From IMG/VR virus record IMGVR_UViG_3300042885_000900: 54,999 bases of DNA; one strand, written 5' to 3'. The notes beneath the pieces are model-generated. The model saw only the letters and a list, made by a program, of their open reading frames with translations, made no database searches and was not told the origin of the DNA. The DNA is from a virus. Its lineage: Duplodnaviria > Heunggongvirae > Uroviricota > Caudoviricetes. The position numbers were made by a program, and so were the translations under genes. Positions 1 to 54,494 of the stretch are shown one piece after another (the first letter of the stretch is position 1; each line of letters begins with the position of its first letter).

Positions 1-140
1 GAAAAAAGTGGGAGCCTGAACACCAGTCTTACTGGTAGGGACTACTCTCCAAATTCTCAATTTCTGAGTCATAAATTTTAGCTAATAGCTAAAACTATGT
101 GGAGTTGGGTTGGTTGTTTTTCATATTTTTAAATTTTTTG

Positions 141-220
141 TATCCCCGGTGGGAGTCGAACCCACACGCCGAAGCAACAAGTCTTAAGCCTGTCGTGTAT
201 ACCAGTTTCACCACGGAGAT
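141..220 (-). tRNA. tRNA-Leu(TAA)
   Basis: Cloverleaf; anticodon arm ACAGG-CTTAAGA-CTTGT, long variable arm, GGTTCGACTCC T arm. Confidence 0.9.
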
Positions 221-221
221 G

Positions 222-430
222 TGTTCCCCCAATGAGATTAGTTTGGGGTAGATTTTTTCTGTTTTCCTATTCAAAAGTCGAGACGGTCTTACCCGCACAT
301 AAAAGTCAACTATTACTTGGAGGTGAGTTAGTATGCTCCCTTTTCCCAAAGACCTCATCTGTAAAACCGTTTGAGGCGTCAGCCACATCATTATTTCGAA
401 CGATGCCAAATCATTGAGTATCTCTATCTC
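222..430 (-). ncRNA. Candidate structured RNA between tRNA genes
   Basis: CTCAATGA can pair with TCATTGGG near the other end; several internal hairpins; no convincing ORF. Confidence 0.4.
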
Positions 431-435
431 AATTG

Positions 436-516
436 TAGTCAGGACAGGACTCGAACCTGTAATTCCGGTTAAACCCCTCGACGGGGCCGCGTCTATCCAA
501 TTCCGCCACCCGACTA
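436..516 (-). ncRNA. tRNA-like RNA with non-canonical anticodon loop
   Basis: Acceptor, Leu-like D arm and canonical T arm present; anticodon arm GCCCC-GTCGA-GGGGT has no U33. Confidence 0.7.
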
Positions 517-591
517 TTTTCCCGTCTTTCCGAGATGTCAACTACTTACCAATTAGCCTCATTGGTCAATCCTCTTATAGTCGATTTTGAT

Positions 592-665
592 GGTAAGGTG
601 GGATTCGAACCCACATCCTTTCAGCCAATTAAGACCGAACGCTTTCGCCGTTTGAGCTTCTTACC
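592..665 (-). ncRNA. tRNA-like RNA with 7-bp anticodon stem and 6-nt loop
   Basis: GGTAAG/CTTACC acceptor, canonical T arm, TTCGGTC-TTAATT-GGCTGAA arm. Confidence 0.7.
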
Positions 666-898
666 AAACATTTTGGAAAAACTTGATGATTACGTTTACC
701 ATCTTCGACTTGAGTTTGTCTTATTCATTTTCCCATTTTTTTTTGAGAGATTTCCCTGTAAAATACAGTCAATCTCGTCCTAAACCAAATCATTCTTTCT
801 TTTAAGGTTAAGAAACATTTAACTACCTATTTGACACCACTGACTTTTCTTAACTACAAAAAACAGACTCTCAAACTGAACCCCGGAAAAACGACTCG

Positions 899-971
899 AG
901 CTTCCGACCGGTCTCGAACCGACAACTTCGACCTTACAAGGGACGCACTCTACCAATTGAGTTACGGAAGC
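899..971 (-). tRNA. tRNA-Thr(TGT)
   Basis: Cloverleaf, loop CTTGTAA. Confidence 0.92.
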
Positions 972-1187
972 CTGTTGCAGAGTATTTTTTTTAAGTAGAA
1001 GTCAACTCTGTCTCTTAAACTACTAAAAGAAACTGTCCAAGGTCTATCCTGCTTTCGCTGTCCAGATTTTTCTCTGTTTCTTAAAACATCATCACTTCGG
1101 CCACATTGGGAGAACCGCAGTTCCCACGTAGTTTAAGGAGGTAGTTGGCGGCGTATCACACCGAGTTATGATAATGTATTAAAAAAA

Positions 1188-1312
1188 AAACCAACAACCG
1201 GATTTGAAACTTACCTACGCACAGTGAGGTATCCGGTCTTCATCGTTCGCATTGCCTAATCATTGAGTACTATTTCATTTCGGCTGCCGTGCGTGTCATT
1301 AGTGATGGTTTT
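1188..1312 (-). ncRNA. Candidate pseudoknotted RNA
   Basis: Ends pair (AAACCA/TGGTTT); CCGGAT/ATCCGG and TACCT/AGGTA stems; loop CTGTGCGT is complementary to upstream ACGCACGG; U-tract follows. Confidence 0.55.
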
Positions 1313-1323
1313 AATCTTTATTG

Positions 1324-1396
1324 TACCCCAGGAGGGAATCGAACCCTCAAAATCTTGTGCCTAAAACAAGCGTGTCTACCGTTCCACCACCGGGGC
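1324..1396 (-). tRNA. tRNA-Leu(TAG), short variable region
   Basis: CTTGT-TTTAGGC-ACAAG; variable region only about 5 nt. Confidence 0.85.
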
Positions 1397-1506
1397 GTTT
1401 TGGTGGGTCTCGACCCCACCTGTTTGAATTACTTGTTGATTCCTCTTACTTTTCTCACCTAACTAGTATGTGGTGTGTAAAACCAATCTACCATCACTCA
1501 ACCCAT

Positions 1507-1770
1507 TTACTTCGTCTCAATAATATTATAGGTTCCTTGAACCATTCCGAAACTTGAATCCTCGTGGAATTTGTAAGTCTCAGGGACTTCTCCTTCTCTC
1601 ATAGGCCTTGAAACAGTCCAAAGATGTTCATCTTTCCAAGTAACGTTTACCAACTTTTCACCCTGAGGTAATTTGATGGTTCCGGTCCCTCCAAAACTTT
1701 TCACTCTTTGATTCTCTGTACAAGATGCCAAAGATACTAATAATATTAAACTTAAAACAACTTTTTTCAT
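1507..1770 (-). CDS. Putative lipoprotein
   Basis: Signal peptide ending in lipobox LASC. Confidence 0.8.
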   Translation of the reverse strand: MKKVVLSLILLVSLASCTENQRVKSFGGTGTIKLPQGEKLVNVTWKDEHLWTVSRPMREGEVPETYKFHEDSSFGMVQGTYNIIETK

Positions 1771-1798
1771 AAAAATAACAAATAAAATTAAAAAATTG

Positions 1799-1870
1799 TG
1801 ACCCCACAGGGATTCGAACCCCGATTGAAAGCTTAGAAGGCTTTAGTCCTATCCGTTGAACGATGGAGCC
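1799..1870 (-). tRNA. tRNA-Arg(TCT)
   Basis: AAAGC-CTTCTAA-GCTTT. Confidence 0.92.
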
Positions 1871-1874
1871 AAAG

Positions 1875-1948
1875 AGCAACATGCCGGTCTCGAACCGGCC
1901 TTATTTCACATTGGAAGTGTGATGCCATACCTACTAGGCGAATGTTGC
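1875..1948 (-). tRNA. tRNA-Gly(TCC)
   Basis: TCACA-CTTCCAA-TGTGA, U73. Confidence 0.92.
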
Positions 1949-2081
1949 AGTTTAGATGAACTTCGGACTTGTGTACCGAAATGAGACCCAATAATTAAAT
2001 CACTAACCCTAGGTGTGGTCTATTCATCTATTTTTTTAAACTTATACCTTGAAAATAAATTTAAATTTTAAACTTGTAAGT

Positions 2082-2255
2082 TTAAACTTTTGTTTTAAGG
2101 TTGTTGATTTCTCTCTCAATTCTTTTCTTATCAGAATCAGTTAAAGGAATCTTGGTATTCATAGTACCCTTTTCGGTTTTTACACCATTTTTTAATTGTT
2201 TCTCCAACACTTCAAGAACTCTTTGTTGTCTTGACCTTTTCGCTACTGTAGCCAT
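2082..2255 (-). CDS. Small basic hypothetical protein (57 aa, MATVAKRSRQQ...)
   Basis: Hand-translated ORF below the track cutoff. Confidence 0.7.
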   Translation of the reverse strand: MATVAKRSRQQRVLEVLEKQLKNGVKTEKGTMNTKIPLTDSDKKRIEREINNLKTKV

Positions 2256-2277
2256 ACGGATTTAGTTATTAAATTAG

Positions 2278-2350
2278 TAGCGTAGGGCAGGTAACGCTCC
2301 TGCTTTAGTCGGCTTATGAGACCGATGAGATACTATACCTCCCCCTCGCG
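2278..2350 (-). tRNA. tRNA-Met(CAT), initiator-like, non-canonical T loop
   Basis: TCGGT-CTCATAA-GCCGA; C1 unpaired; T loop AGCGTTA; one bulge in the acceptor stem. Confidence 0.8.
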
Positions 2351-2357
2351 ATGTTAG

Positions 2358-2455
2358 CTGATTAATAAGGATTTGAACCTTATTCCTGTTTCCACCCTCG
2401 GTCTCGCATAATTCGGACCTAATAGCTTCTACCGTGCTCCATACACCATAATCAA
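2358..2455 (-). ncRNA. tRNA-like RNA with expanded central region
   Basis: TGATTA/TAATCA acceptor, GTGT/GCAC D stem, TAAGG-TTCAAAT-CCTTA T arm, about 50 nt in place of the anticodon and variable arms. Confidence 0.5.
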
Positions 2456-2506
2456 TCGATGGTTTCGAACCCATCAGTCTTAAAATTAATTACTTCTTAA
2501 GATTTG

Positions 2507-2577
2507 CGGTCTATGACGGTAACGCTCCGTCTACTCAACAGTGACAGTGTTGGATGATGCTTCTTCACTAATAGACC
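2507..2577 (-). tRNA. tRNA-Asp(GTC), non-canonical T loop
   Basis: CAACA-CTGTCAC-TGTTG; T loop AGCGTTA; G73. Confidence 0.88.
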
Positions 2578-2635
2578 TTGTTTTTATTCTCTACAAAGAT
2601 AGTCATTAAGTTTTTAATAACCAAATTTATTTTTG

Positions 2636-2707
2636 TGGAGGTACACGGTAACGCTCCGTGTTCTGTGATTTGCAAAACCACTGTAATTGCTTTTATACGA
2701 TACCCCC
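2636..2707 (-). tRNA. tRNA-Ala(TGC), non-canonical T loop
   Basis: GTGGT-TTTGCAA-ATCAC; G3:U70 identity pair; T loop AGCGTTA. Confidence 0.9.
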
Positions 2708-2771
2708 GTTTATTCGTCTTTCCGAATCGTCAACATTGTGTAATTAGGGGACACGTTGTTCATAACCCTTG

Positions 2772-2843
2772 TACTGCCACGGAGAATCGAACTCCGATTT
2801 TATGGATGAAAACCATATATCCTGACCGTTAGATGATGGCAGC
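2772..2843 (-). tRNA. tRNA-Glu(TTC)
   Basis: TATGG-TTTTCAT-CCATA. Confidence 0.92.
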
Positions 2844-2944
2844 GAATTTTGGATAGATGAGGTTCTATCCGGACCAGGACCTTCTCCCTTGGGAGATGTC
2901 ATTTTAATATTACCAATATTTCAATTAACTTGTTTCTTTTTGAT

Positions 2945-2982
2945 GGTACAAAGATAATACTTTATTTCATTATACCAAACTT
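2945..2982 (-). promoter_or_regulatory. Bacteroidota-type housekeeping promoter (TTTG...TATCTTTG)
   Basis: Matches the -33/-7 consensus; same motif near 3680, 6650, 7015, 7930, 12495, 25030, 34510, 36580, 53340 (-) and 27700, 47320 (+). Confidence 0.75.
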
Positions 2983-3089
2983 TATTCTTCTTTTTTTTCT
3001 GTTGAATCATCCTCAACTAAAACATTTTTCAATCCGTAGGTTACTCCCAATATCGGTGAGTAATCCATAACCAATTCTTCTCTAATCAT
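2982..3089 (-). CDS. Small hypothetical protein (35 aa)
   Basis: Hand-translated ORF MIREELVMDYS... Confidence 0.5.
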   Translation of the reverse strand: MIREELVMDYSPILGVTYGLKNVLVEDDSTEKKEE

Positions 3090-3097
3090 AATAATTA

Positions 3098-3208
3098 TTA
3101 TTTTTTTGTTATTTTATCAACATATCCTTTACCTAGAACTACCAATACCACTAAACATACCAATAATCCCCCCATTATAACAATTATTTGTTCTCCTGTA
3201 TAATCCAT
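3098..3208 (-). CDS. Small membrane protein
   Basis: One hydrophobic segment; start re-called to MDYTGEQ. Confidence 0.55.
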   Translation of the reverse strand: MDYTGEQIIVIMGGLLVCLVVLVVLGKGYVDKITKK

Positions 3209-3224
3209 ATCTTTAATTTGTTTT

Positions 3225-3455
3225 TTACCAATTATTGGTGTTATAAATACAAAATTGTGAACCCACTTGGGCGTTTCTCCAATCATTCGGGTATAGATAA
3301 AACAATTTATCGTCTCCGGTACATTCATTTCTAATTACAACAGAATAATCTCGTACTCTATTACTAATTACTAACCCACAATTACAACTCACATATCCAT
3401 CAACAGAACAAGATAAGAATAGTGGGATGACCATAATTAAAATCAATTTTTTCAT
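3225..3455 (-). CDS. Putative Cys-rich lipoprotein
   Basis: Signal peptide with FLSC lipobox. Confidence 0.75.
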   Translation of the reverse strand: MKKLILIMVIPLFLSCSVDGYVSCNCGLVISNRVRDYSVVIRNECTGDDKLFYLYPNDWRNAQVGSQFCIYNTNNW

Positions 3456-3475
3456 AAATTATTTCTTTTAAACTT

Positions 3476-3661
3476 CTAATTCCAATCTTCATATTCTACA
3501 CTACCATCATCATCCCAAGCGTCTTCCTCTTCATCTTCATCCTTTAATCCACACTCACCTCTAAAATCTAAGTAAGGTATCATATCATCTTCGTGACCAT
3601 TCTTTTGATGTTTCTCCCAAGATTCTCTACATTTTTCTTCTGTCATGATTTCTTGTTTCAT
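3476..3661 (-). CDS. Acidic hypothetical protein
   Basis: ORF directly downstream of a TAnnTTTG promoter. Confidence 0.7.
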   Translation of the reverse strand: MKQEIMTEEKCRESWEKHQKNGHEDDMIPYLDFRGECGLKDEDEEEDAWDDDGSVEYEDWN

Positions 3662-3983
3662 AATCCTTTTATTTGATACAAAGGTAATACATTATTTCAT
3701 TCTGCCAAATAAAAACCAAAAAAAAATCCACCTTTTTTTGAAGATGGATTTTAAAATATTTTTTTACTTAAATATATATCATACCATCGACTTCCAAGTT
3801 GTATCTCTACCCTCAGTTCCCGCTATCGTAAGTAATATGTTTAAAGTTTGCATTTTTTGTGTTATTGTAATTTCTTATAAATATACGCTAATTTACCAAA
3901 GTGTCAAGTGATTTTAAAATTAATTTTTTAATTAATCTCAATTTCAAGATATTTATAGTAAATAAACTTTTAAAAATTCAATT

Positions 3984-4148
3984 ATGAATAAAGAACAAAT
4001 TTTTGGTGTTATTCGCCACGTATTCACTGCCATTGGTGGTATTGTCATTGCACAAGGGTATATATCTGATAGTATGTACACTGAATTATCCGGAGCGGTA
4101 TTAACATTAACTGGTGTAATTTGGTCAATTGTTTCTAAAAAACAGTAG
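3984..4148 (+). CDS. Small two-TM protein, putative holin (54 aa, MNKEQIFGVIRH...)
   Basis: Hand-translated; two hydrophobic helices; TATTTAT upstream and terminator downstream. Confidence 0.75.
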   Translation: MNKEQIFGVIRHVFTAIGGIVIAQGYISDSMYTELSGAVLTLTGVIWSIVSKKQ

Positions 4149-4159
4149 TATAATAAACA

Positions 4160-4192
4160 GAAAAAAGGTTAGAGAAATCTAACCTTTTTTTT
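4160..4192. terminator. Bidirectional intrinsic terminator
   Basis: AAAAAAGGTTAGA-GAAA-TCTAACCTTTTTT between convergent units. Confidence 0.8.
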
Positions 4193-4210
4193 ATGCCTAT
4201 AAGTTAAATA

Positions 4211-4426
4211 AAAAAAGTTTAACAACCCCGCCCTCGGGTCGTAGCGGGCAACTTGAGAATCACTTCTCGTGGGAATTCCGGAATTGGTTGTGTTCCTCAC
4301 CGGCGTACCAGTCCTTATTTATCCTTTACCGTATTTCTACGGTGCTACTGTTGGGAGGTCACCCCTATCAACACAACTAGTCCATTAGTTTTTTAGAGTA
4401 TGGACACCCCGGTTGTTAAACTTTTT
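4211..4426 (-). ncRNA. Candidate multi-helix ncRNA (about 215 nt)
   Basis: 16-bp terminal helix; GAAA, TACG and GTGA tetraloop hairpins when read on the minus strand. Confidence 0.65.
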
Positions 4427-4486
4427 AATTTACATTCACCGTATTTCTACGGCGATAATCGCCGGTATCTCACCGTATTAATAAAT

Positions 4487-4638
4487 AAAAACAGACAATG
4501 AGGATTCTCCGATATTTCAGTCTTAGGGGACTAGACGGGCATCATACCCGTGTTTACCCTCGGAGGTCTCTTGGTTTGGTTGATTACTCCGAACCTCACC
4601 TCTACACTACCACTGACGTAAGTTATAGGTCTGTTTTT
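4487..4638 (-). ncRNA. Candidate closed structured RNA (about 150 nt)
   Basis: AAAAACAGAC/GTCTGTTTTT terminal helix, GC-enriched interior, no ORF. Confidence 0.5.
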
Positions 4639-4793
4639 AATTCTTTGTAAAACAACAGACGGCTTTGAAGTACATCCACACCAACAATTATGACCGACTT
4701 CACCTTATGTGGAAGTTTAGTTTTACAATATCTATCAAGATTTACCCCAGTCTTTAGGTCGCTATTAATACCTTTAGTCCTTATTCTCAAATT

Positions 4794-4854
4794 AATTAAT
4801 ACAGGAATCGAACCTGCGTCTGGGCCGTCACCCCGTAGTACCACTCTACTAATT
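4794..4854 (-). ncRNA. Miniature tRNA-like RNA
   Basis: AATTAGT/ATTAATT acceptor-like stem, GCAGG-TTCGATT-CCTGT T arm, reduced D arm. Confidence 0.4.
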
Positions 4855-4923
4855 TTTCATTTTACCTTCCGGAGATAACTTTCGTCATGTCACCTTATCC
4901 AACCTTATATGGATAAATCTTTT

Positions 4924-5033
4924 GCCCTTCCAGTGGGAATCGAACCCACATACTCTTAATACATTCTTGGGATGGTTACCGGAGGGAGATGTATTCGTCT
5001 CTGTGTTTTGCTCTTTTTAAACTACAGAAGGAT
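4924..5033 (-). ncRNA. tRNA-like RNA with expanded anticodon region
   Basis: CCTTC/GAAGG acceptor, GTGGG-TTCGATT-CCCAC T arm, AATACAT/ATGTATT stem enclosing 24 nt. Confidence 0.55.
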
Positions 5034-5037
5034 TTTG

Positions 5038-5106
5038 CACGCCATCAAAGAATCGAACTCTGTCCTATGGGTTTGGAATCCATTTGGCTACCTTAGCCTA
5101 TGACGC
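5038..5106 (-). tRNA. tRNA-Trp(CCA)
   Basis: ATGGA-TTCCAAA-CCCAT; compact D arm. Confidence 0.88.
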
Positions 5107-5115
5107 ATTTTATTG

Positions 5116-5198
5116 AGTTCAGGGTCGGATTCGAACCGACGAGGACTTTCGTCATTGGTTTTGCAGACCAATCTAATCAACCACTCTAGCACCTGAAC
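5116..5198 (-). tRNA. tRNA-Cys(GCA) with long variable arm
   Basis: TTGGT-CTGCAAA-ACCAA; U73; variable hairpin GAC-GAAA-GTC. Confidence 0.88.
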
Positions 5199-5259
5199 AT
5201 TTAAAGTAAAATATAATTTACAAATACACCCATTTTTGTAAATTATATTTAATGTTAAT

Positions 5260-5505
5260 TTAATATCCTATTTCATCTTTAACCTCCCATTGTTTATCAA
5301 TGGGGATTCTTTCAATCTTTTCCACCGGAACAAATCCGTCAAATCCTTTGTCTTTAACATCTTCAAAATGTTCTATGGTGTCCAATTGGAACCCAAACTT
5401 ATATCTCATGTATTGGAACTTTTCACCATCCCAATAAGCGACGTGGTTGTTTCTACAAAAACCATTATACCACCCCTCAACCATTTCATTTTTTGGTATC
5501 ATCAT
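5260..5505 (-). CDS. Hypothetical protein
   Basis: ORF; start re-called to MMIPK because the upstream part lies in an RNA hairpin. Confidence 0.7.
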   Translation of the reverse strand: MMIPKNEMVEGWYNGFCRNNHVAYWDGEKFQYMRYKFGFQLDTIEHFEDVKDKGFDGFVPVEKIERIPIDKQWEVKDEIGY

Positions 5506-5614
5506 TTCTATTTTTATATTAGCACCCTCTTTCTTACTCAAGTGGATTGATTCAGCCACGCGTATTGTAAGAGTAGGGTCACGTAGTTACTGGATGAACC
5601 CAAATAACTTACTT

Positions 5615-5705
5615 GTTGAGAACTCATTTGGGTTGTAGGATATTGTCTTCCTCTTCATCCATTATTTCTTATGGCACTAATTCCTTTCTCAAGGGAACAA
5701 CACAT
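5615..5705 (-). ncRNA. Repeated structured RNA motif, copy 1
   Basis: Conserved 5' and 3' blocks shared with 10776-10861; predicted pseudoknot. Confidence 0.65.
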
Positions 5706-5886
5706 CTACCATTTCTGATAGTATCTTTATGTAAATTTAATTATGGTAAGCAGGGCGCCTGGTATTATCTTCTAGAAGACAGGGACAAACTTATACTCTT
5801 ACCTTTTGGACTATGCCTAGCCACTTTCCCATTTCATTTATAATTAATTTACAAAGGTTCGATGTTTAACCTATTTTATTAGTCCA

Positions 5887-6108
5887 TTAATTAAAAGTTA
5901 TCTGACATTTAGACGCCTTTAACTTTTTATCTAAACTTTTTTTAGCACCAACCTCAATATACCTACGGTTACTATAGTACTTGTGCATTCTCTCACAATG
6001 GGTTGAACAACTTTCTAATCCAACAATTATTAAGAATGAGATGATTGCGATAACATAACTTCTTAAACTACAGACATAAGGTCCGTACAAATCAAACATT
6101 TTTTTCAT
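5887..6108 (-). CDS. Hypothetical membrane or lipoprotein
   Basis: Hydrophobic segment followed by LESC. Confidence 0.6.
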   Translation of the reverse strand: MKKMFDLYGPYVCSLRSYVIAIISFLIIVGLESCSTHCERMHKYYSNRRYIEVGAKKSLDKKLKASKCQITFN

Positions 6109-6119
6109 ATTTTTTATTT

Positions 6120-6305
6120 TTACAAAGATACAATTACATTTCTACTTTTGAGAATTTTTCTTAAAAAAATTAATCTTTCTCTATGATTAGTATATTCATC
6201 CTCATCATTAGCTTTATGACCTCTAAATATTGATTCGGTTATCTCACAATCCAATTTAATAATTTCGGTTATAATCTCCTCCGTGGTTAATTTACTTTTT
6301 TTCAT
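6120..6305 (-). CDS. Hypothetical protein
   Basis: ORF in operon-like array. Confidence 0.7.
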   Translation of the reverse strand: MKKSKLTTEEIITEIIKLDCEITESIFRGHKANDEDEYTNHRERLIFLRKILKSRNVIVSL

Positions 6306-6625
6306 ATTTTCTCAAATTCGTCTTCAAATCCGTACCATTCATCACCATTTTCATCTTCGTACCAACATTTGTATTCTCGCTCGTACCGATTCCAATCAAT
6401 TCTTGTTAATTCAACTTCATTTCCCCCATCTTTGTTTTTAACCACTTCACCCACTTGGAATGCTTGTGGTGCGTAATTGTCGATTGTTTTACTTTGAACA
6501 ATTAAATCCCCAACACTTTTAACCTCATCGGTTTGGATGTTGGTGTAATTTCCTCCGGATGATAATTTCCACCCTTTACTATACAACCAAATCGTAAAAT
6601 CTAAAATCTCTTTTTCTAATAACAT
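6302..6625 (-). CDS. Hypothetical protein
   Basis: Start re-called to MLLEKE, downstream of the promoter motif. Confidence 0.7.
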   Translation of the reverse strand: MLLEKEILDFTIWLYSKGWKLSSGGNYTNIQTDEVKSVGDLIVQSKTIDNYAPQAFQVGEVVKNKDGGNEVELTRIDWNRYEREYKCWYEDENGDEWYGFEDEFEKI

Positions 6626-6657
6626 AATACATCTGTTTTGTGAGGACAAAGATAATA

Positions 6658-6990
6658 CTATTTTTTACCCAATCCTACAATTGTAACACTTTTAATCTTT
6701 TTTTTACCTTTTTTAACCTTTTTTTCAACTTTTGGTTGTGAAGCTCTATTTTGTAACGTCAATACCTTTCTAGTTACTTTACACATTTTTTCTAAAATCT
6801 CTAATGATTCAAGATTCTTAAAGAAAACAGTTAGAAGTTCTTCCGATTCGTCTGAAGAATAAATATTATCACCAATCATTCTTGGTTTTAATAATTTATT
6901 AAAACTAATAAAGGGTGTTTGAGTAATATTCTCAATTCCCGCACCCATAGACAATTCTCCCAATCCCGCAACAACAATACTTTTTTTCAT
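6658..6990 (-). CDS. Hypothetical protein with basic C-terminus
   Basis: Start re-called to MKKSIVV. Confidence 0.7.
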   Translation of the reverse strand: MKKSIVVAGLGELSMGAGIENITQTPFISFNKLLKPRMIGDNIYSSDESEELLTVFFKNLESLEILEKMCKVTRKVLTLQNRASQPKVEKKVKKGKKKIKSVTIVGLGKK

Positions 6991-7047
6991 AATTTTTATA
7001 TATTTAATTTCGACAAAGATAATACAATTTTTTAAACTACCAAACAA

Positions 7048-7443
7048 TTATTCATTTTTTTTCACTATTTCTATTAATTTTTTAAGACATTCTAGTTGTG
7101 CTTGTTCGTAAGAATTTTTATAGCCTATAAAGTTAATAAACATTTTACCCTTACCTAAATTTTTAGTTATTAACCAATCATACTTTTTAAATGTATCGTC
7201 ATCAGATTCTGTAGGAGATGTAAAATATCCATACTTCTCTCTAAACCATCTAAATGCTTGTGAGAATGTTGGTGCTGAGATATAATCATCAATTTCATTA
7301 TTCACATTTCTCATTTTACTATTTATAACCTCTTCTAATATTTCACTTAATTGGTCATTTTTATAGTAAGAAAAACAAGGTTCATCAAACCCTAATTCTT
7401 TTAAAGATAAAGCCAAGGTGTAAGGTATAAATTCTTTTTTCAT
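7048..7443 (-). CDS. Hypothetical protein, paralog of 7446-7802
   Basis: Shared PY.LAL.LKELGFDEPC, SAPT..QAFRWFR.KY and LECLKKLIEIVK blocks. Confidence 0.85.
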   Translation of the reverse strand: MKKEFIPYTLALSLKELGFDEPCFSYYKNDQLSEILEEVINSKMRNVNNEIDDYISAPTFSQAFRWFREKYGYFTSPTESDDDTFKKYDWLITKNLGKGKMFINFIGYKNSYEQAQLECLKKLIEIVKKNE

Positions 7444-7445
7444 AA

Positions 7446-7802
7446 CTATTTTTGTTTTACTATTTCTATTAATTTTTTTAAACATTCAAGTTCTGCTTCT
7501 TCGTGGGTAGTATATTGTTCCATTGAGTCAAAAACAATATTGTCTAATTCATCGTAGATTGGGTTATTATAAAATATCCTATCATTTTCTTCAACACAAG
7601 TTGATGGTGTTTGAGAATATAAATCATACTTCTGTCTAAACCATCTAAATGCTTGTTGATAAGTTGGTGCAGATATCACACAATGTGGCATTTCTTTTAT
7701 CATTAAAAATCCTCCTCCATCTCTATAACCCATACAAGGTTCATCAAATCCTAATTCTTTTAAAGCTAATGCGATTTCATAAGGAACAAAAAGACTTTCC
7801 AT
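7446..7802 (-). CDS. Hypothetical protein, paralog of 7048-7443
   Basis: Same shared blocks; start probably MESLFVPY. Confidence 0.85.
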   Translation of the reverse strand: MESLFVPYEIALALKELGFDEPCMGYRDGGGFLMIKEMPHCVISAPTYQQAFRWFRQKYDLYSQTPSTCVEENDRIFYNNPIYDELDNIVFDSMEQYTTHEEAELECLKKLIEIVKQK

Positions 7803-43972: not shown

Positions 43973-44584
43973 TTATTGTATTTCTTGTTTATTTGTTAGG
44001 TATAACTCCTCAACATCTTTTTCCAAGTAAAATTGTAATTGGTTATTGGTTGTTGTAATCTCTTTATATCGTTCCTCCGCCATATTAATGTGCTCATAAA
44101 CATGACGCTTTGTTGTTGTTATCCCCTCTTTGTATTGTTCATCCACCTGTTTTTGTAGACGCCAACCGAACTCCTGTGTTGATTTTACACCCACTTTGTA
44201 GTGTTCCTCCACCATTGATGTCCAATTAACGGAAATAGAACCAGTTGTTGCGACCCCCACTTTGTAGTGTTCCTCCACCCTTTCCATCAATATTTCTTTC
44301 CACTTCTTCGATTCTGTTGTTATCCCCACTTTGTAGTGTTCCTCCACCCATATCTTTGTGATGTCCTTAATTTGTTGATTAGACATACCAAACATATTTT
44401 CAAAAAACTTCCAAATTTCACTATAACTCACATAGACATACCCATTTTTTTTATTATGTTGCAGAATACATTTCCCATTTTTCATATGAAAGATATAATC
44501 AGGATATTCTTTCATTATAAATGGTTCCATATGATTGTAGTTATCGTTTAACCACTTGATACAAAGTTTTTCTATTTTAGTCAT
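43973..44584 (-). CDS. Repeat-spacer array protein 1
   Basis: About 75-aa domain followed by VEEHYKVG.TTT repeats with unique 10-11-aa spacers. Confidence 0.85.
   Translation of the reverse strand: MTKIEKLCIKWLNDNYNHMEPFIMKEYPDYIFHMKNGKCILQHNKKNGYVYVSYSEIWKFFENMFGMSNQQIKDITKIWVEEHYKVGITTESKKWKEILMERVEEHYKVGVATTGSISVNWTSMVEEHYKVGVKSTQEFGWRLQKQVDEQYKEGITTTKRHVYEHINMAEERYKEITTTNNQLQFYLEKDVEELYLTNKQEIQ
44001..44348. repeat. CRISPR-geometry array inside an ORF
   Basis: 36-bp repeats at 44313, 44244, 44178, 44112; 33-bp degenerate copy at 44049; spacers 33, 30, 30, 30 bp. Confidence 0.85.
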
Positions 44585-45530: not shown

Positions 45531-45694
45531 AATTTTTTATAGTTTTTTTCATTATAATTATAAGGAATTTTTTTCTAAATTCCAACACATATCCAACCAT
45601 TCCCCACCATCGTAATTCTATTAATTTATTTAATATTAACGAGGTTATTTTTAATAAAAAAAATAAGACATTATTAATTATACCCATTTTTTTT

Positions 45695-45994
45695 CTAATC
45701 TCCGAATGTGTTAGAGTTTAATCTCCACACACTTCTTATTTTACCAATCAATTCATCAAAGTTATCACTAACATCATCTTGGGGACAACTATCACCCCAA
45801 CTTTTACCTTCCGGTGTTTTTAACCAATACTCTACTTTCATTGAGTTTGTTTTTTCATCATAGTAAATTGAGATGCTTTCTACAATTGCATCATAAATAG
45901 CTAAATGGTCACCAGGTTTACCATTACTATTACTATGTCTTGAGATACCGTAAACGCTACTGTTAAGTTCGTAAAGTTCGTAATTTGTTTTCAT
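45695..45994 (-). CDS. Hypothetical protein
   Basis: ORF. Confidence 0.75.
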   Translation of the reverse strand: MKTNYELYELNSSVYGISRHSNSNGKPGDHLAIYDAIVESISIYYDEKTNSMKVEYWLKTPEGKSWGDSCPQDDVSDNFDELIGKIRSVWRLNSNTFGD

Positions 45995-46011
45995 AATTTT
46001 TTAATTTTTGT

Positions 46012-46227
46012 TTTGTAATGTTCCTCCACCAATACGAATTCACGACCCAAAGTTTTAGACGTTGTTGTTATCCCCAATTTGTAATGTTCCTCCACCATGG
46101 TTTCGTAATCCTTAAAGAATCCGGAGTTGTTGTCGCCCCCAATTTGAAATGTTCCTCCACCGAAAAGTTACGGGGATTGGCACACACGATAGTTGTTGTC
46201 GCCCCCAATTTGAAATGTTCCTCCACC
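46012..46227. repeat. CRISPR-geometry array at the 3' end of an ORF
   Basis: Identical 36-mers GTTGTTGTCGCCCCCAATTTGAAATGTTCCTCCACC at 46192 and 46126, variant at 46061, partial copy ending 46030; spacers 30, 29, 30 bp. Confidence 0.9.
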
Positions 46228-46463
46228 CATTCCTTCGTTAATCCCTGAATTTGCGTGTAATTCATACTAAAATAGTTTTCAAAAAACGACCAAATTTCCC
46301 TATAATTGATATAAGCACGCCCATTTTTTTTATTGTAATCAAAGATAAGTTTACCATTTTTTATATAGAAAACATAATTAGGATATTCCGGTGATTCAAA
46401 TATTTCTAAATCACCGTAGTTATCGTTTAACCATTTGACACCTATTTTATTTAACTTGCTCAT
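46068..46463 (-). CDS. Repeat-spacer array protein 2 (frame broken by a 29-bp spacer)
   Basis: N-terminal domain homologous to 43973-44584; VEEHFKLGATTT repeats. Confidence 0.85.
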   Translation of the reverse strand: MSKLNKIGVKWLNDNYGDLEIFESPEYPNYVFYIKNGKLIFDYNKKNGRAYINYREIWSFFENYFSMNYTQIQGLTKEWVEEHFKLGATTTIVCANPRNFSVEEHFKLGATTTPDSLRITKPWWRNITNWG

Positions 46464-48354: not shown

Positions 48355-49230
48355 TTATTTTAAGAACTCCCACCCATTCCAACCTATATTTTTATATTGG
48401 TTTGATGGGGATGAAGGAAGATGGTATTTATCTCTAATTGTTTTATCTATTTTCTTATACTGATAACCACTTTTAATGTCAAGTTTTTTAAGTGTTTGTG
48501 TAAATTCTTCAAAAGAAATAAATTTTTTATCAATATTAGCCACTTTATCATTACTCAAATAATCCGACCAACTAATCCACCCTCTTTTACCATAATATCT
48601 GAAAGGTTTTAATGGAACATCAAACGGGATTAACCCATTTCTATGATGAGCCCTATAATCTTCAGAACATTTAAATTTAAAATCATTTAATTTTAATTTT
48701 GCCTCATCATATGATATATAAGAGACATCGTTATCGTATTTATTATTTGTCCCCAAAAAATCAATCCAACTAATCCAACCCCTTTTTTCATAAGATTGGT
48801 CAGGATATTTACAAATATATTCTGGTAGTTTAAGAATTTTAATTTGATTATACCAATCCGATTTTGATTTAATCTTTAAATTTTTTTGAACCCAAGATTT
48901 AGTTTCATTATATGTCATTTTATAAATTATTCCACACCCACCTAACCCTCCCGATGATGTGTTTGTTAGATTTGGATATTTTAAGATATATTCTTTTTCT
49001 TTTTCATTCCATATTAAATAATTACATTCTTCAAGAATGATAAAATCAATTTCATAATTATTTTTAATTATCCAATAATCTTTATGAGTTAAATTCTTAC
49101 CTTTATTCACAGAATGTTTTGTCAAATATTTATGTCTTTTTAATCTATCTGATGGATTATCTGATTTTCCAATATATCTAACCTCATTAGGGGATTTTTT
49201 ACTAACTAACCCATAAATAAATGTATTCAT
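48355..49230 (-). CDS. GIY-YIG endonuclease with C-terminal P...Y...GW..W repeats
   Basis: FIYGL...RYIGKS..P..R...H; three GW.SW-type repeats. Confidence 0.82.
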   Translation of the reverse strand: MNTFIYGLVSKKSPNEVRYIGKSDNPSDRLKRHKYLTKHSVNKGKNLTHKDYWIIKNNYEIDFIILEECNYLIWNEKEKEYILKYPNLTNTSSGGLGGCGIIYKMTYNETKSWVQKNLKIKSKSDWYNQIKILKLPEYICKYPDQSYEKRGWISWIDFLGTNNKYDNDVSYISYDEAKLKLNDFKFKCSEDYRAHHRNGLIPFDVPLKPFRYYGKRGWISWSDYLSNDKVANIDKKFISFEEFTQTLKKLDIKSGYQYKKIDKTIRDKYHLPSSPSNQYKNIGWNGWEFLK

Positions 49231-53559: not shown

Positions 53560-53600
53560 GTAAATTTGATTGGTTGGAAATTAATAACTATATTTGGGTT

Positions 53601-54494
53601 ATGGAAGAAATAATTAACAAACTAATAAAATATCATATAAAGGGTGTGGATACTTACACTCACAATGGCTCCACTTGGTTAATCTTTACGAAGACCAAAC
53701 AATGGGTGATAGAATTAACCGATAGTAAAACTCTATGGTATAATTATACCATAGAATTAACCGAGGGTAAAACTCTATGGTATAACTACAACTTCTTCAA
53801 TAGTGTTTTTTCTTATGCGTCGTTAGATGTCGTTCAGAACCAACACCTCATTACAAAATGGGTGGAAGATAATGTTATAAATGGGGTAAAGGAAACTTCC
53901 CACAACGCAACGATGTTCCAATCAATGAAGGTTGAAGACACCCTTGAAAATGGGGTGAAAGAAACACAATTTAATTGGCACGAAAATAAAAGTTGGGTTG
54001 AAGGCGTTATTAAAGAAGGTGTGAAGGAAACTCTCAACACCGAGTATATGCCACAGATAATGGTTGAAGACACAATTGAAAATGGTGTAAAACAAACCTT
54101 ACCTGGAGGAAAATATATTAACGATGTTGAAGAAGTTATTAAAGATGGTGTGAAAAGTTCTCATCCACTCCAATATAAATCAGAAGAGATAATTGATGAG
54201 GTGGTTAATGATGGTATAAAAGAAACCCACGATGACACATACCACCACAAAGGAAGAATTGATGGCGTTATTAAAAATGGGATAAATCATACTCAACCTC
54301 ATGTTATAAAAAATAAATATATCGTTGAAGAGGTAATTGAAGATGGTGTTAAAAGTTCTCACCCACTCCAATATATCTCAAAAGAGATAATTGGTGGTAT
54401 AATAGAAACCCACGATGACGCATATCACCACAAAGGAAGAATAGATGGCGTAATTAAGAATGGAGTTAAAGAAATAAAAAATCCCACCGGTTAG
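53601..54494 (+). CDS. Repeat-spacer array protein 3
   Basis: N-terminal domain then ten VE..I.NGVKET-type repeats with 9-11-aa spacers. Confidence 0.85.
   Translation: MEEIINKLIKYHIKGVDTYTHNGSTWLIFTKTKQWVIELTDSKTLWYNYTIELTEGKTLWYNYNFFNSVFSYASLDVVQNQHLITKWVEDNVINGVKETSHNATMFQSMKVEDTLENGVKETQFNWHENKSWVEGVIKEGVKETLNTEYMPQIMVEDTIENGVKQTLPGGKYINDVEEVIKDGVKSSHPLQYKSEEIIDEVVNDGIKETHDDTYHHKGRIDGVIKNGINHTQPHVIKNKYIVEEVIEDGVKSSHPLQYISKEIIGGIIETHDDAYHHKGRIDGVIKNGVKEIKNPTG
53861..54475. repeat. CRISPR-geometry array inside an ORF
   Basis: 36-bp repeats at 53861, 53930, 53996, 54062, 54125, 54191, 54257, 54323, 54389 (21 bp), 54440; spacers 33, 30, 30, 27, 30, 30, 30, 30, 30 bp. Confidence 0.85.

Follow-up and report, generated by a model that had tools for sequence, protein, structure and literature searches.

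The array and the gene that carries it

Four 36-nt repeats separated by three spacers of 30, 29 and 30 nt lie at positions 45995-46227 of the window (the whole 54,999-nt stretch of viral DNA analysed), where they form the 3' end of a minus-strand phage gene (table 1). The window belongs to an IMG/VR viral contig of 115 kb, estimated by CheckV to be 39% complete, which implies a phage of approximately 300 kb. Three paralogs of the gene are found in the contig, namely an intact 203-aa copy (paralog 1), the frameshifted copy studied here (paralog 2) and a third copy outside the window (paralog 3), together with 21 tRNA genes and a ClpP-like protease. Near-identical DNA was detected in runs of 20 studies, nearly all of them freshwater or lake metagenomes. 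A BLASTN comparison of the region with phage records returned weak matches over the ClpP-like gene only, and Rfam at gathering threshold returned tRNAs only.

Table 1. Array elements and associated genes, with positions in the 54,999-nt window.
Feature	Position	Strand	Description
Intact paralog 1, 203 aa	43973-44584	-	same domain plus in-frame six-repeat array (43973-44348)
Downstream 99-aa gene	45695-45994	-	start codon overlaps the natural stop codon of the array
Array remainder, 35 aa	45991-46098	-	open in the repeat frame as MVEEHYKLGITTTSKTLGREFVLVEEHYKTKIKKL, then stop
Repeat 4	45995-46030	-	degenerate terminal repeat (VEEHYKTKIKKL); stop codon 45991-45993 overlaps the ATG of the next gene (ATGA)
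Spacer 3 (30 nt)	46031-46060	-	read SKTLGREFVL; matches a class II aminoacyl-tRNA-synthetase gene
Repeat 3	46061-46096	-	VEEHYKLGITTT; differs by 4 nt from repeats 1 and 2; now in the -1 frame
Truncated ORF, 131 aa	46068-46463	-	domain, two cassettes and out-of-frame tail ending PWWRNITNWG at the stop
Spacer 2 (29 nt)	46097-46125	-	frame-breaking unit; contiguous copy from a Flavobacterium AMP-binding gene
Repeat 2	46126-46161	-	identical to repeat 1
Spacer 1 (30 nt)	46162-46191	-	read IVCANPRNFS; most gene-proximal; exact copy from the Flavobacterium 23S rRNA gene
Repeat 1	46192-46227	-	last base of codon 79 and codons 80-91 (VEEHFKLGATTT), to the second base of the last Thr codon
Gene body, paralog 2, codons 1-79	46228-46463	-	small alpha/beta domain of unknown function; leader side of the array

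The repeats start 66, 65 and 66 nt apart. Their 19-nt core, with at most three mismatches allowed, occurs 10 times in the window, against a mean of 0.32 in shuffled sequence (0 of 100 shuffles reached 10). The two gene-proximal repeats, at 46192 and 46126, are identical as had been claimed from the sequence alone, and their identity reaches 37 nt with one flanking base. The three spacers are mutually unlike, no offset on either strand giving more than 11 matches; the mutual homology that the original prediction had named beforehand as speaking against it was thus not seen.

The same organization recurs across the gene family. Among 91 family spacers, 73 are 30 nt long, and the others measure 29 (five), 27 (five), 33 (seven) or 32 nt (one). 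In approximately 34 family arrays parsed at the DNA level, the edges of the internal repeats are abrupt: position -1 is G in 98% and position -2 reaches 31%, while position 34 is C in 96% and position 35 reaches 47%. The conserved block is exactly 36 nt long and stands one base out of codon phase; the base before the pre-Val G is random, and the last Thr codon is free to vary at its third base in family repeats. With its sharp, fixed-length repeats and its unlike, near-constant-length, protospacer-derived spacers, the array at 45995-46227 is confirmed as a real CRISPR-style repeat-spacer array.

The N-terminal 91 residues are modelled by AF2 with a pLDDT of 96.5, in the order helix, four strands and two helices, and repeat 1 encodes the end of the last helix (helix 3) and a short tail in this model. 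No Pfam or PHROG family matched the N-domain, no PDB fold matched it at E <= 0.001, its AFDB relatives are all uncharacterised and the ESM Atlas gave no usable hit. The N-domain family comprises 728 clusters at 50% identity, mostly of 95-135 aa and array-free; some members (P0121, P0123, P0268) hold 2-5 domain copies in proteins of 346-864 aa. Database searches retrieved 211 protein homologues, none informatively named. The 99-aa gene downstream of the array may be translationally coupled to the array ORF.

Host DNA in the spacers and the reading frame of the gene

Matches to bacterial genomes show all three spacers to be copies of different Flavobacterium chromosomal loci. Spacer 1 is identical over 30/30 positions to the Flavobacterium 23S rRNA gene, in antisense and near its 5' end, and this identity stops at the spacer boundary (5' edge). 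Of the 17 exact matches that its 24-nt core has in the genome collection, 15 fall in named Flavobacterium, three rrn copies of one chromosome included, and the host locus is LSU rRNA according to Rfam. Spacer 2 is found contiguously over 29/29 positions in one genome (G384, locus L064), and over 26-28/29 positions in five other Flavobacterium genomes or species, with no internal gap. It lies antisense to an AMP-binding gene of acyl-CoA-synthetase type, the host ORF matching PF00501 at 3.7e-89. Spacer 3 matches at 26/30 positions in each of three Flavobacterium genomes (25-26/30 across five), on the sense strand and in the same codon phase of an ORF that matches PF00152 and PF01336. That such matches represent phage-derived DNA in bacterial assemblies is not plausible for 23S rRNA.

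Matches to Flavobacterium DNA extend to spacers of paralog 1 and of three arrays in relatives (L009, L014 and L035), four being exact. Among them, the second spacer of paralog 1 (44214-44243) matches G384 at 29/30 positions and its first spacer matches G009 at 29/33; one L014 spacer and two L009 spacers match at 30/30, and those of L035 at 29/30 and 27/29. The host loci are ordinary housekeeping genes, represented by either strand, and this mixed orientation fits a capture from double-stranded DNA. Neither the 115-kb contig of the phage itself nor the flanking DNA of related loci yielded a protospacer. The eight mapped protospacers showed no consistent flanking motif, nor the F. columnare TTTANNNNN on the leader side, a motif which may not be the host's PAM. 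Comparison of 118 host CRISPR spacers (four arrays) with the phage gave chance-level matches of 15-23 nt only, and hence no targeting link. The three host-locus copies, together with the sharp 36-nt edges one base out of codon phase, bear out the earlier proposal that units were acquired at the DNA level rather than by duplication of a protein repeat.

The frame break proposed for the 29-bp spacer is equally supported: the ORF closes on the out-of-frame tail that had been described, and beyond it the repeat frame stays open (table 1). An assembly indel concealing a 30-bp spacer, which had been named as evidence to the contrary, was not seen. Indeed, contigs of three independent runs (X6, X17 and X20) cover 45600-46154 with zero differences and zero gaps, and the independent ENA contig L006 carries the same 29 nt. 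As the 29-mer matches host DNA without an internal gap, the unit measured 65 nt from its insertion onward, and the spacer was thus captured short rather than shortened afterwards. The host base just upstream of the protospacer is also the last base of the repeat, so that the event has two readings, a 29-mer or a 30-mer accompanied by a 35-nt repeat copy.

Such lengths are a native product. Of four native Flavobacterium arrays examined (II-C and VI-B), three contain 29-nt spacers, at 11-38%: the counts of 29-, 30- and 31-nt spacers are 6, 50 and 0 in II-C array G163; 7, 28 and 0 in II-C array G001; 6, 9 and 1 in VI-B array G070; and 0, 11 and 0 in VI-B array G321. Other arrays of the phage family (L030, L035, L038 and paralog 3) likewise have 29- or 32-nt spacers, even in-frame stops, with well-preserved repeats remaining downstream. 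In L030 (1745-2150), 29-nt spacers and in-frame stop codons are followed by well-preserved repeats that are all but identical; in L035 (3238-3700), 29-nt spacers are followed by well-preserved, partly degenerate repeats, four to six repeats following in these two arrays. The preservation of repeats past frame breaks and stops in L030 and L035 indicates that repeat integrity is independent of translation. Paralog 3 (G000:C1:72901-73240, locus L003) has a VEERYNLRVT.T repeat and a 29-nt frame-breaking spacer of its own.

The arrays are nonetheless strongly biased towards an open frame. Among 73 unique 30-nt spacers, a stop codon in the frame of the gene occurs in one, against 23-38 in each of the other five frames (approx. 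44%; P = 4e-17). In addition, 85 of the 91 spacer lengths are multiples of three, and frame-breaking lengths are rarer in phage arrays (6/91) than in host arrays (20/118; P = 0.03). The loci were collected through N-domain motifs, and the bias is therefore not an artefact of protein calling. These counts show selection for an open frame, and the array is presumably translated. Because each array's natural stop codon overlaps with or adjoins the start of the next gene, selection may act on translational coupling besides, or instead of, the peptide cassettes.

Three further ideas about the repeat and its spacers were set aside. A special conservation of synonymous sites in the repeat is unsupported, the whole domain being equally low in synonymous diversity. 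An SD-like GGAGG followed by ATG, GTG or TTG in each repeat was dropped, as no SD-like motif precedes the start of either paralog and the start codon of the motif is missing in paralog 3. Targeted mutagenesis of DGR type was rejected in view of the absence of position-specific or codon-periodic spacer composition, and of any template copy in the contig.

Array variation points to growth at the gene-proximal end. Across the family, 46% of gene-proximal cassettes are unique to one protein, versus 8-16% at positions 4-6, and the distal repeats are degenerate; in homologues with near-identical N-domains, the 10-residue segments between the VEEHYK.G.TTT blocks are completely different. In the array studied, the unit between the identical repeats, which had been singled out as youngest-looking, is absent from close relatives. 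L006, which shares 98.8% identity with the window over 3.5 kb, aligns to it with a break exactly at 46161/46191; this contig is without spacer 1 and one repeat (a 66-bp unit) and retains the 29-mer, and the same 66-nt skip is found in run X8. There, spacer 1 is embedded in 23S rRNA sequence at either end, and among the X8 contigs listed none links it to a phage repeat. Since repeats 1 and 2 are identical and repeat 3 carries four differences, a recent gain at the gene-body end is the simplest reading, and the spacer-1 unit is most likely such a gain, a direction which we infer. The absence of the unit from L006 and X8 could instead be a deletion between identical repeats. A recent gain of spacer 1 would imply that the array kept acquiring after its frame was broken.

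Other differences between arrays were recorded. In paralog 1, the internal spacer at 44214-44243 (GSISVNWTSM) is swapped for an unrelated one (SSKRDYGSVT) in the near-identical L006, with identical flanks, which suggests recombination or differential loss within arrays. This internal difference is unexplained by simple leader-end addition and counts against our best explanation. Two tandem paralogs in L038 (2383-3140) offer a before-and-after view of array birth: the array-free copy has its original C-terminal tail (NKWLLKKELRWGNAT) straight after the repeat block, and its neighbour carries that tail behind two inserted spacers of 29 and 32 nt. Elsewhere in the window, a 306-aa gene (53574-54494, plus strand) contains an in-frame array with a period of 21-23 codons (WVEDNVINGVKET... 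units), DNA spacings of 69, 66, 66 and 63, much more degenerate repeats and two to three units that are duplicated internally; it resembles an older array of this type.

Repeat kinship and the source of the array

The original prediction had noted a resemblance to Cas13b repeats without their hairpin, and both halves of this remark stand, with 20-21/36 positions shared on the plus strand (shuffle P <= 0.0002) and no stable fold predicted. Over the set of Flavobacterium VI-B repeats, the agreement is 20-22/36 positions on the plus strand of the window and 15-22/36 in the polarity-matched orientation, with the leader on the gene-body side. Approximately 9/36 is expected by chance, and P ranges from < 0.0002 to 0.009 over both orientations. 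The match is strongest at the leader-distal ...GGTAA.CA.CAAC / GTTGT end, and GTTGT is shared at this end by II-C and VI-B repeats (PMC8092290). The repeat of paralog 3 is the closest to a real VI-B repeat, at 22/36 in polarity-matched orientation. Predicted minimum free energies are -2.7 or 0 kcal/mol for the repeat of the array studied and -6.2 or -3.2 for that of paralog 1, with z-scores of -0.9 to +1.1, and no Rfam CRISPR-DR model matched the repeat even at E <= 10.

The geometry of the phage array is that of arrays in the host genus. Two Flavobacterium II-C loci (L095 and L096, with Cas9 and Cas1) contain 57 and 36 repeats of 46 nt (45-46 recovered), and 30-nt spacers with 11-20% 29-mers; none of their native spacers matches the phage. 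The VI-B arrays of G321 and G070 have 36-nt repeats and 30-nt spacers, and the G321 locus (L097) is arranged as array-cas13b-array. In a Flavobacterium species, VI-B arrays are reported to be filled in trans by II-C Cas1-Cas2, with many of their spacers deriving from the host's own genome (Hoikkala 2021, PMC8092290).

Searches for Cas1, Cas2, Cas9, Cas13b and the Cas12f/TnpB (TNB) domain found none of them in the contig (39% complete) or in three complete relatives (308-322 kb). A real Flavobacterium Cas13b (NF038190, 765 bits) used as query gave no match in five phage records, and Cas1 was not found in the 2 Mb of G384, the best-matching host-candidate genome. The newest end of the array adjoins and overlaps the coding sequence of the well-folded domain, with no non-coding AT-rich leader, and this coding 'leader' has no obvious likeness, by eye, to a host leader.

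We consider it very probable that a CRISPR-type array has grown from the last 12 codons of a small gene in a ~300-kb freshwater Flavobacterium phage, by means of a Cas1-Cas2-type integrase, probably that of the host II-C system. Such an integrase, whose identity we infer, would treat the 36-nt codon block (G + VEEH[Y/F]K.G.TT + AC) as a CRISPR repeat; it would most likely be the type II-C adaptation module of the host, acting in trans as it does on the cas1-less VI-B arrays of Flavobacterium. Pieces of approximately 30 nt of the host chromosome would be inserted beside the gene body, probably during infection, with the repeat duplicated each time. As 36 + 30 nt make 66 nt, or 22 codons, most insertions would keep the frame and be translated as 10-residue cassettes. 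In paralog 2, the second-newest capture would have been a 29-mer, a normal minority product, by which the frame was shifted and the protein truncated; the 23S spacer would then have been added, leaving two identical repeats. In-frame products would survive, and out-of-frame ones such as paralog 2 may persist for some time, their folded domain being unharmed. Against this model count the failure to find Cas1 in G384, the lack of a clear motif beside the eight mapped protospacers and the coding nature of the leader side.

The nature of the inserting enzyme is the point on which another reading deserves most attention. An unrecognised phage-encoded integrase, or another phage mechanism, could have made the insertions in place of host Cas1-Cas2, and it is favoured by the repeated presence of arrays, which are found in several paralogs of a genome and across hundreds of related phages. 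No host combining matching spacers with a demonstrated active II-C system was tied to the phage and no F. columnare-like PAM was seen; moreover, the contig being only 39% complete, the studied phage could itself carry such an integrase. We nevertheless regard this reading as unlikely, since the host's own arrays show matching 36/30 geometry, a matching minority of 29-mers and matching repeat ends, since the three complete relatives yielded no Cas1 or Cas2, and since the use of II-C Cas1-Cas2 in trans by cas1-less arrays is documented in the genus (PMC8092290).

Far less probable is the capture of a whole array from a host VI-B locus by recombination, with no growth in the phage. The repeats of each paralog copy its own codons 80-91 (F/L/A in paralog 2, Y/V in paralog 1, R/N/L/R in paralog 3), and the first of them belongs to helix 3 of the conserved domain. 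Moreover, near-identical phages differ by one unit, and the tail that directly follows the repeat in the array-free L038 paralog is preceded by two inserted spacers in its neighbour. These observations outweigh the similarity of the repeat to VI-B repeats and the commonness of self (host-derived) spacers in VI-B arrays (PMC8092290), both of which such a capture would explain.

An ordinary 22-aa protein tandem repeat with fast-evolving linkers, in which the 29-nt unit would be a 1-nt deletion and the gene a pseudogene, is also very hard to sustain. The variable segments reproduce unrelated host genes exactly, the conserved block stands one base off the codon phase, the 29-mer is contiguous with host DNA and free of internal deletion, neighbouring variable segments are mutually unrelated, and AF2 shows no folded repeat (pLDDT 24-36 over the array region). 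This is so despite the 22-codon period, the 211 homologues that remain open through the repeats with lengths stepping by ~22 aa, and terminal repeats conserved in amino acids with synonymous changes. Finally, a programmed -1 ribosomal frameshift at the 29-nt unit, with the full-length protein still made, would restore the frame into an open downstream part and would suit a break that persists in several populations and units that recur in other arrays, but it is very improbable, as direct reading finds no X XXY YYZ slippery heptamer in 46097-46125 and its flanks, the 29-mers of different arrays are unrelated host sequences, and frame-breaking lengths are scarcer in phage than in host arrays, as expected if harmful.

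Relation to known arrays

Among known systems, the VI-B arrays of Flavobacterium come closest to the phage array. Both have 36-nt repeats that agree at 15-22/36 positions, 30-nt spacers with a 29-nt minority, spacers from the host chromosome, growth at one end and a degenerate far end, and neither has cas1 or cas2 of its own. The phage array differs in that it has no cas13b, no internal or terminal stems in its repeat and no non-coding leader (the first repeat being codons 80-91), and in that its frame stays open and is presumably translated.

Orphan or mini arrays carried by viruses, like the arrays of huge phages, reportedly also lack adaptation genes, and for huge phages matches of some spacers to host genes have been reported. 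The array described here shares with the orphan and mini arrays its location on a viral genome lacking cas1 and cas2; however, those are said to be intergenic and read as guide RNAs, whereas this one is fused in frame to a coding sequence, with strong avoidance of stops. Off-target ('neo-CRISPR') integration by Cas1-Cas2 at repeat-like genomic sites has reportedly been seen as a rare event in laboratory E. coli with a I-E system. There too, spacers are integrated and a repeat-like sequence is duplicated outside a canonical array, but the phage site is conserved over several paralogs and hundreds of natural phages. RNA anti-CRISPRs, or solitary phage repeat units, are said to be structured RNAs that bind Cas proteins. 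They are likewise phage-borne imitations of host CRISPR repeats; unlike them, the phage repeat has lost its hairpin, carries real spacers and is kept translatable.

At the protein level, PARCELs are 25-residue amphipathic motifs that form variable intragenic tandem repeats (Roske et al. 2010, PMC2996958). Like the phage repeats, they are repeated in tandem within a coding sequence, combine a conserved with a variable portion and differ in copy number. Identity with PARCELs was rejected: their 25-residue motif is a different one, no Pfam repeat family matched, and the variable parts of the phage arrays are imported host DNA. Literature searches turned up no account of phage arrays that are embedded in a gene and translated.

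Cells are known to use CRISPR adaptation to record invaders. Here, an adaptation-like reaction appears to write pieces of the host chromosome into viral protein genes, and selection keeps the result readable. If the host integrase is responsible, this would be natural, large-scale, off-target adaptation into phage DNA. As to the gain for the phage, if any, the candidates are a by-product with no benefit, an adaptation decoy, protein diversification and a role at the RNA level. More tentatively, and as a possibility to which we give somewhat less than even weight, the phage may keep repeat look-alikes in several genes so that the host integrase serves it, either by writing new 10-residue cassettes into phage proteins (diversification) or by being diverted from the host's real arrays to a high-copy decoy for Cas1-Cas2 (anti-adaptation), with translation kept by selection. 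Were the phage to benefit, this would be a new counter-defence or a new route to protein diversity.

The arrays are also of practical use. Uncultured jumbo phages can be linked to their hosts through spacers, which here name Flavobacterium, and the order of capture is recorded within each array. As regards annotation, such loci would be reported as arrays by CRISPR finders and as proteins by gene-prediction programs, and both would be correct.

Two further features of the window were observed. A 291-aa ORF (48355-49230, minus strand) has internal duplicated segments and resembles a GIY-YIG nuclease weakly, short of the Pfam cut-off; it is a possible homing endonuclease. The 21 tRNA genes are clustered within 12 kb (140-12442, minus strand), and for the one at 589-666 ARAGORN calls a four-base anticodon (taat).
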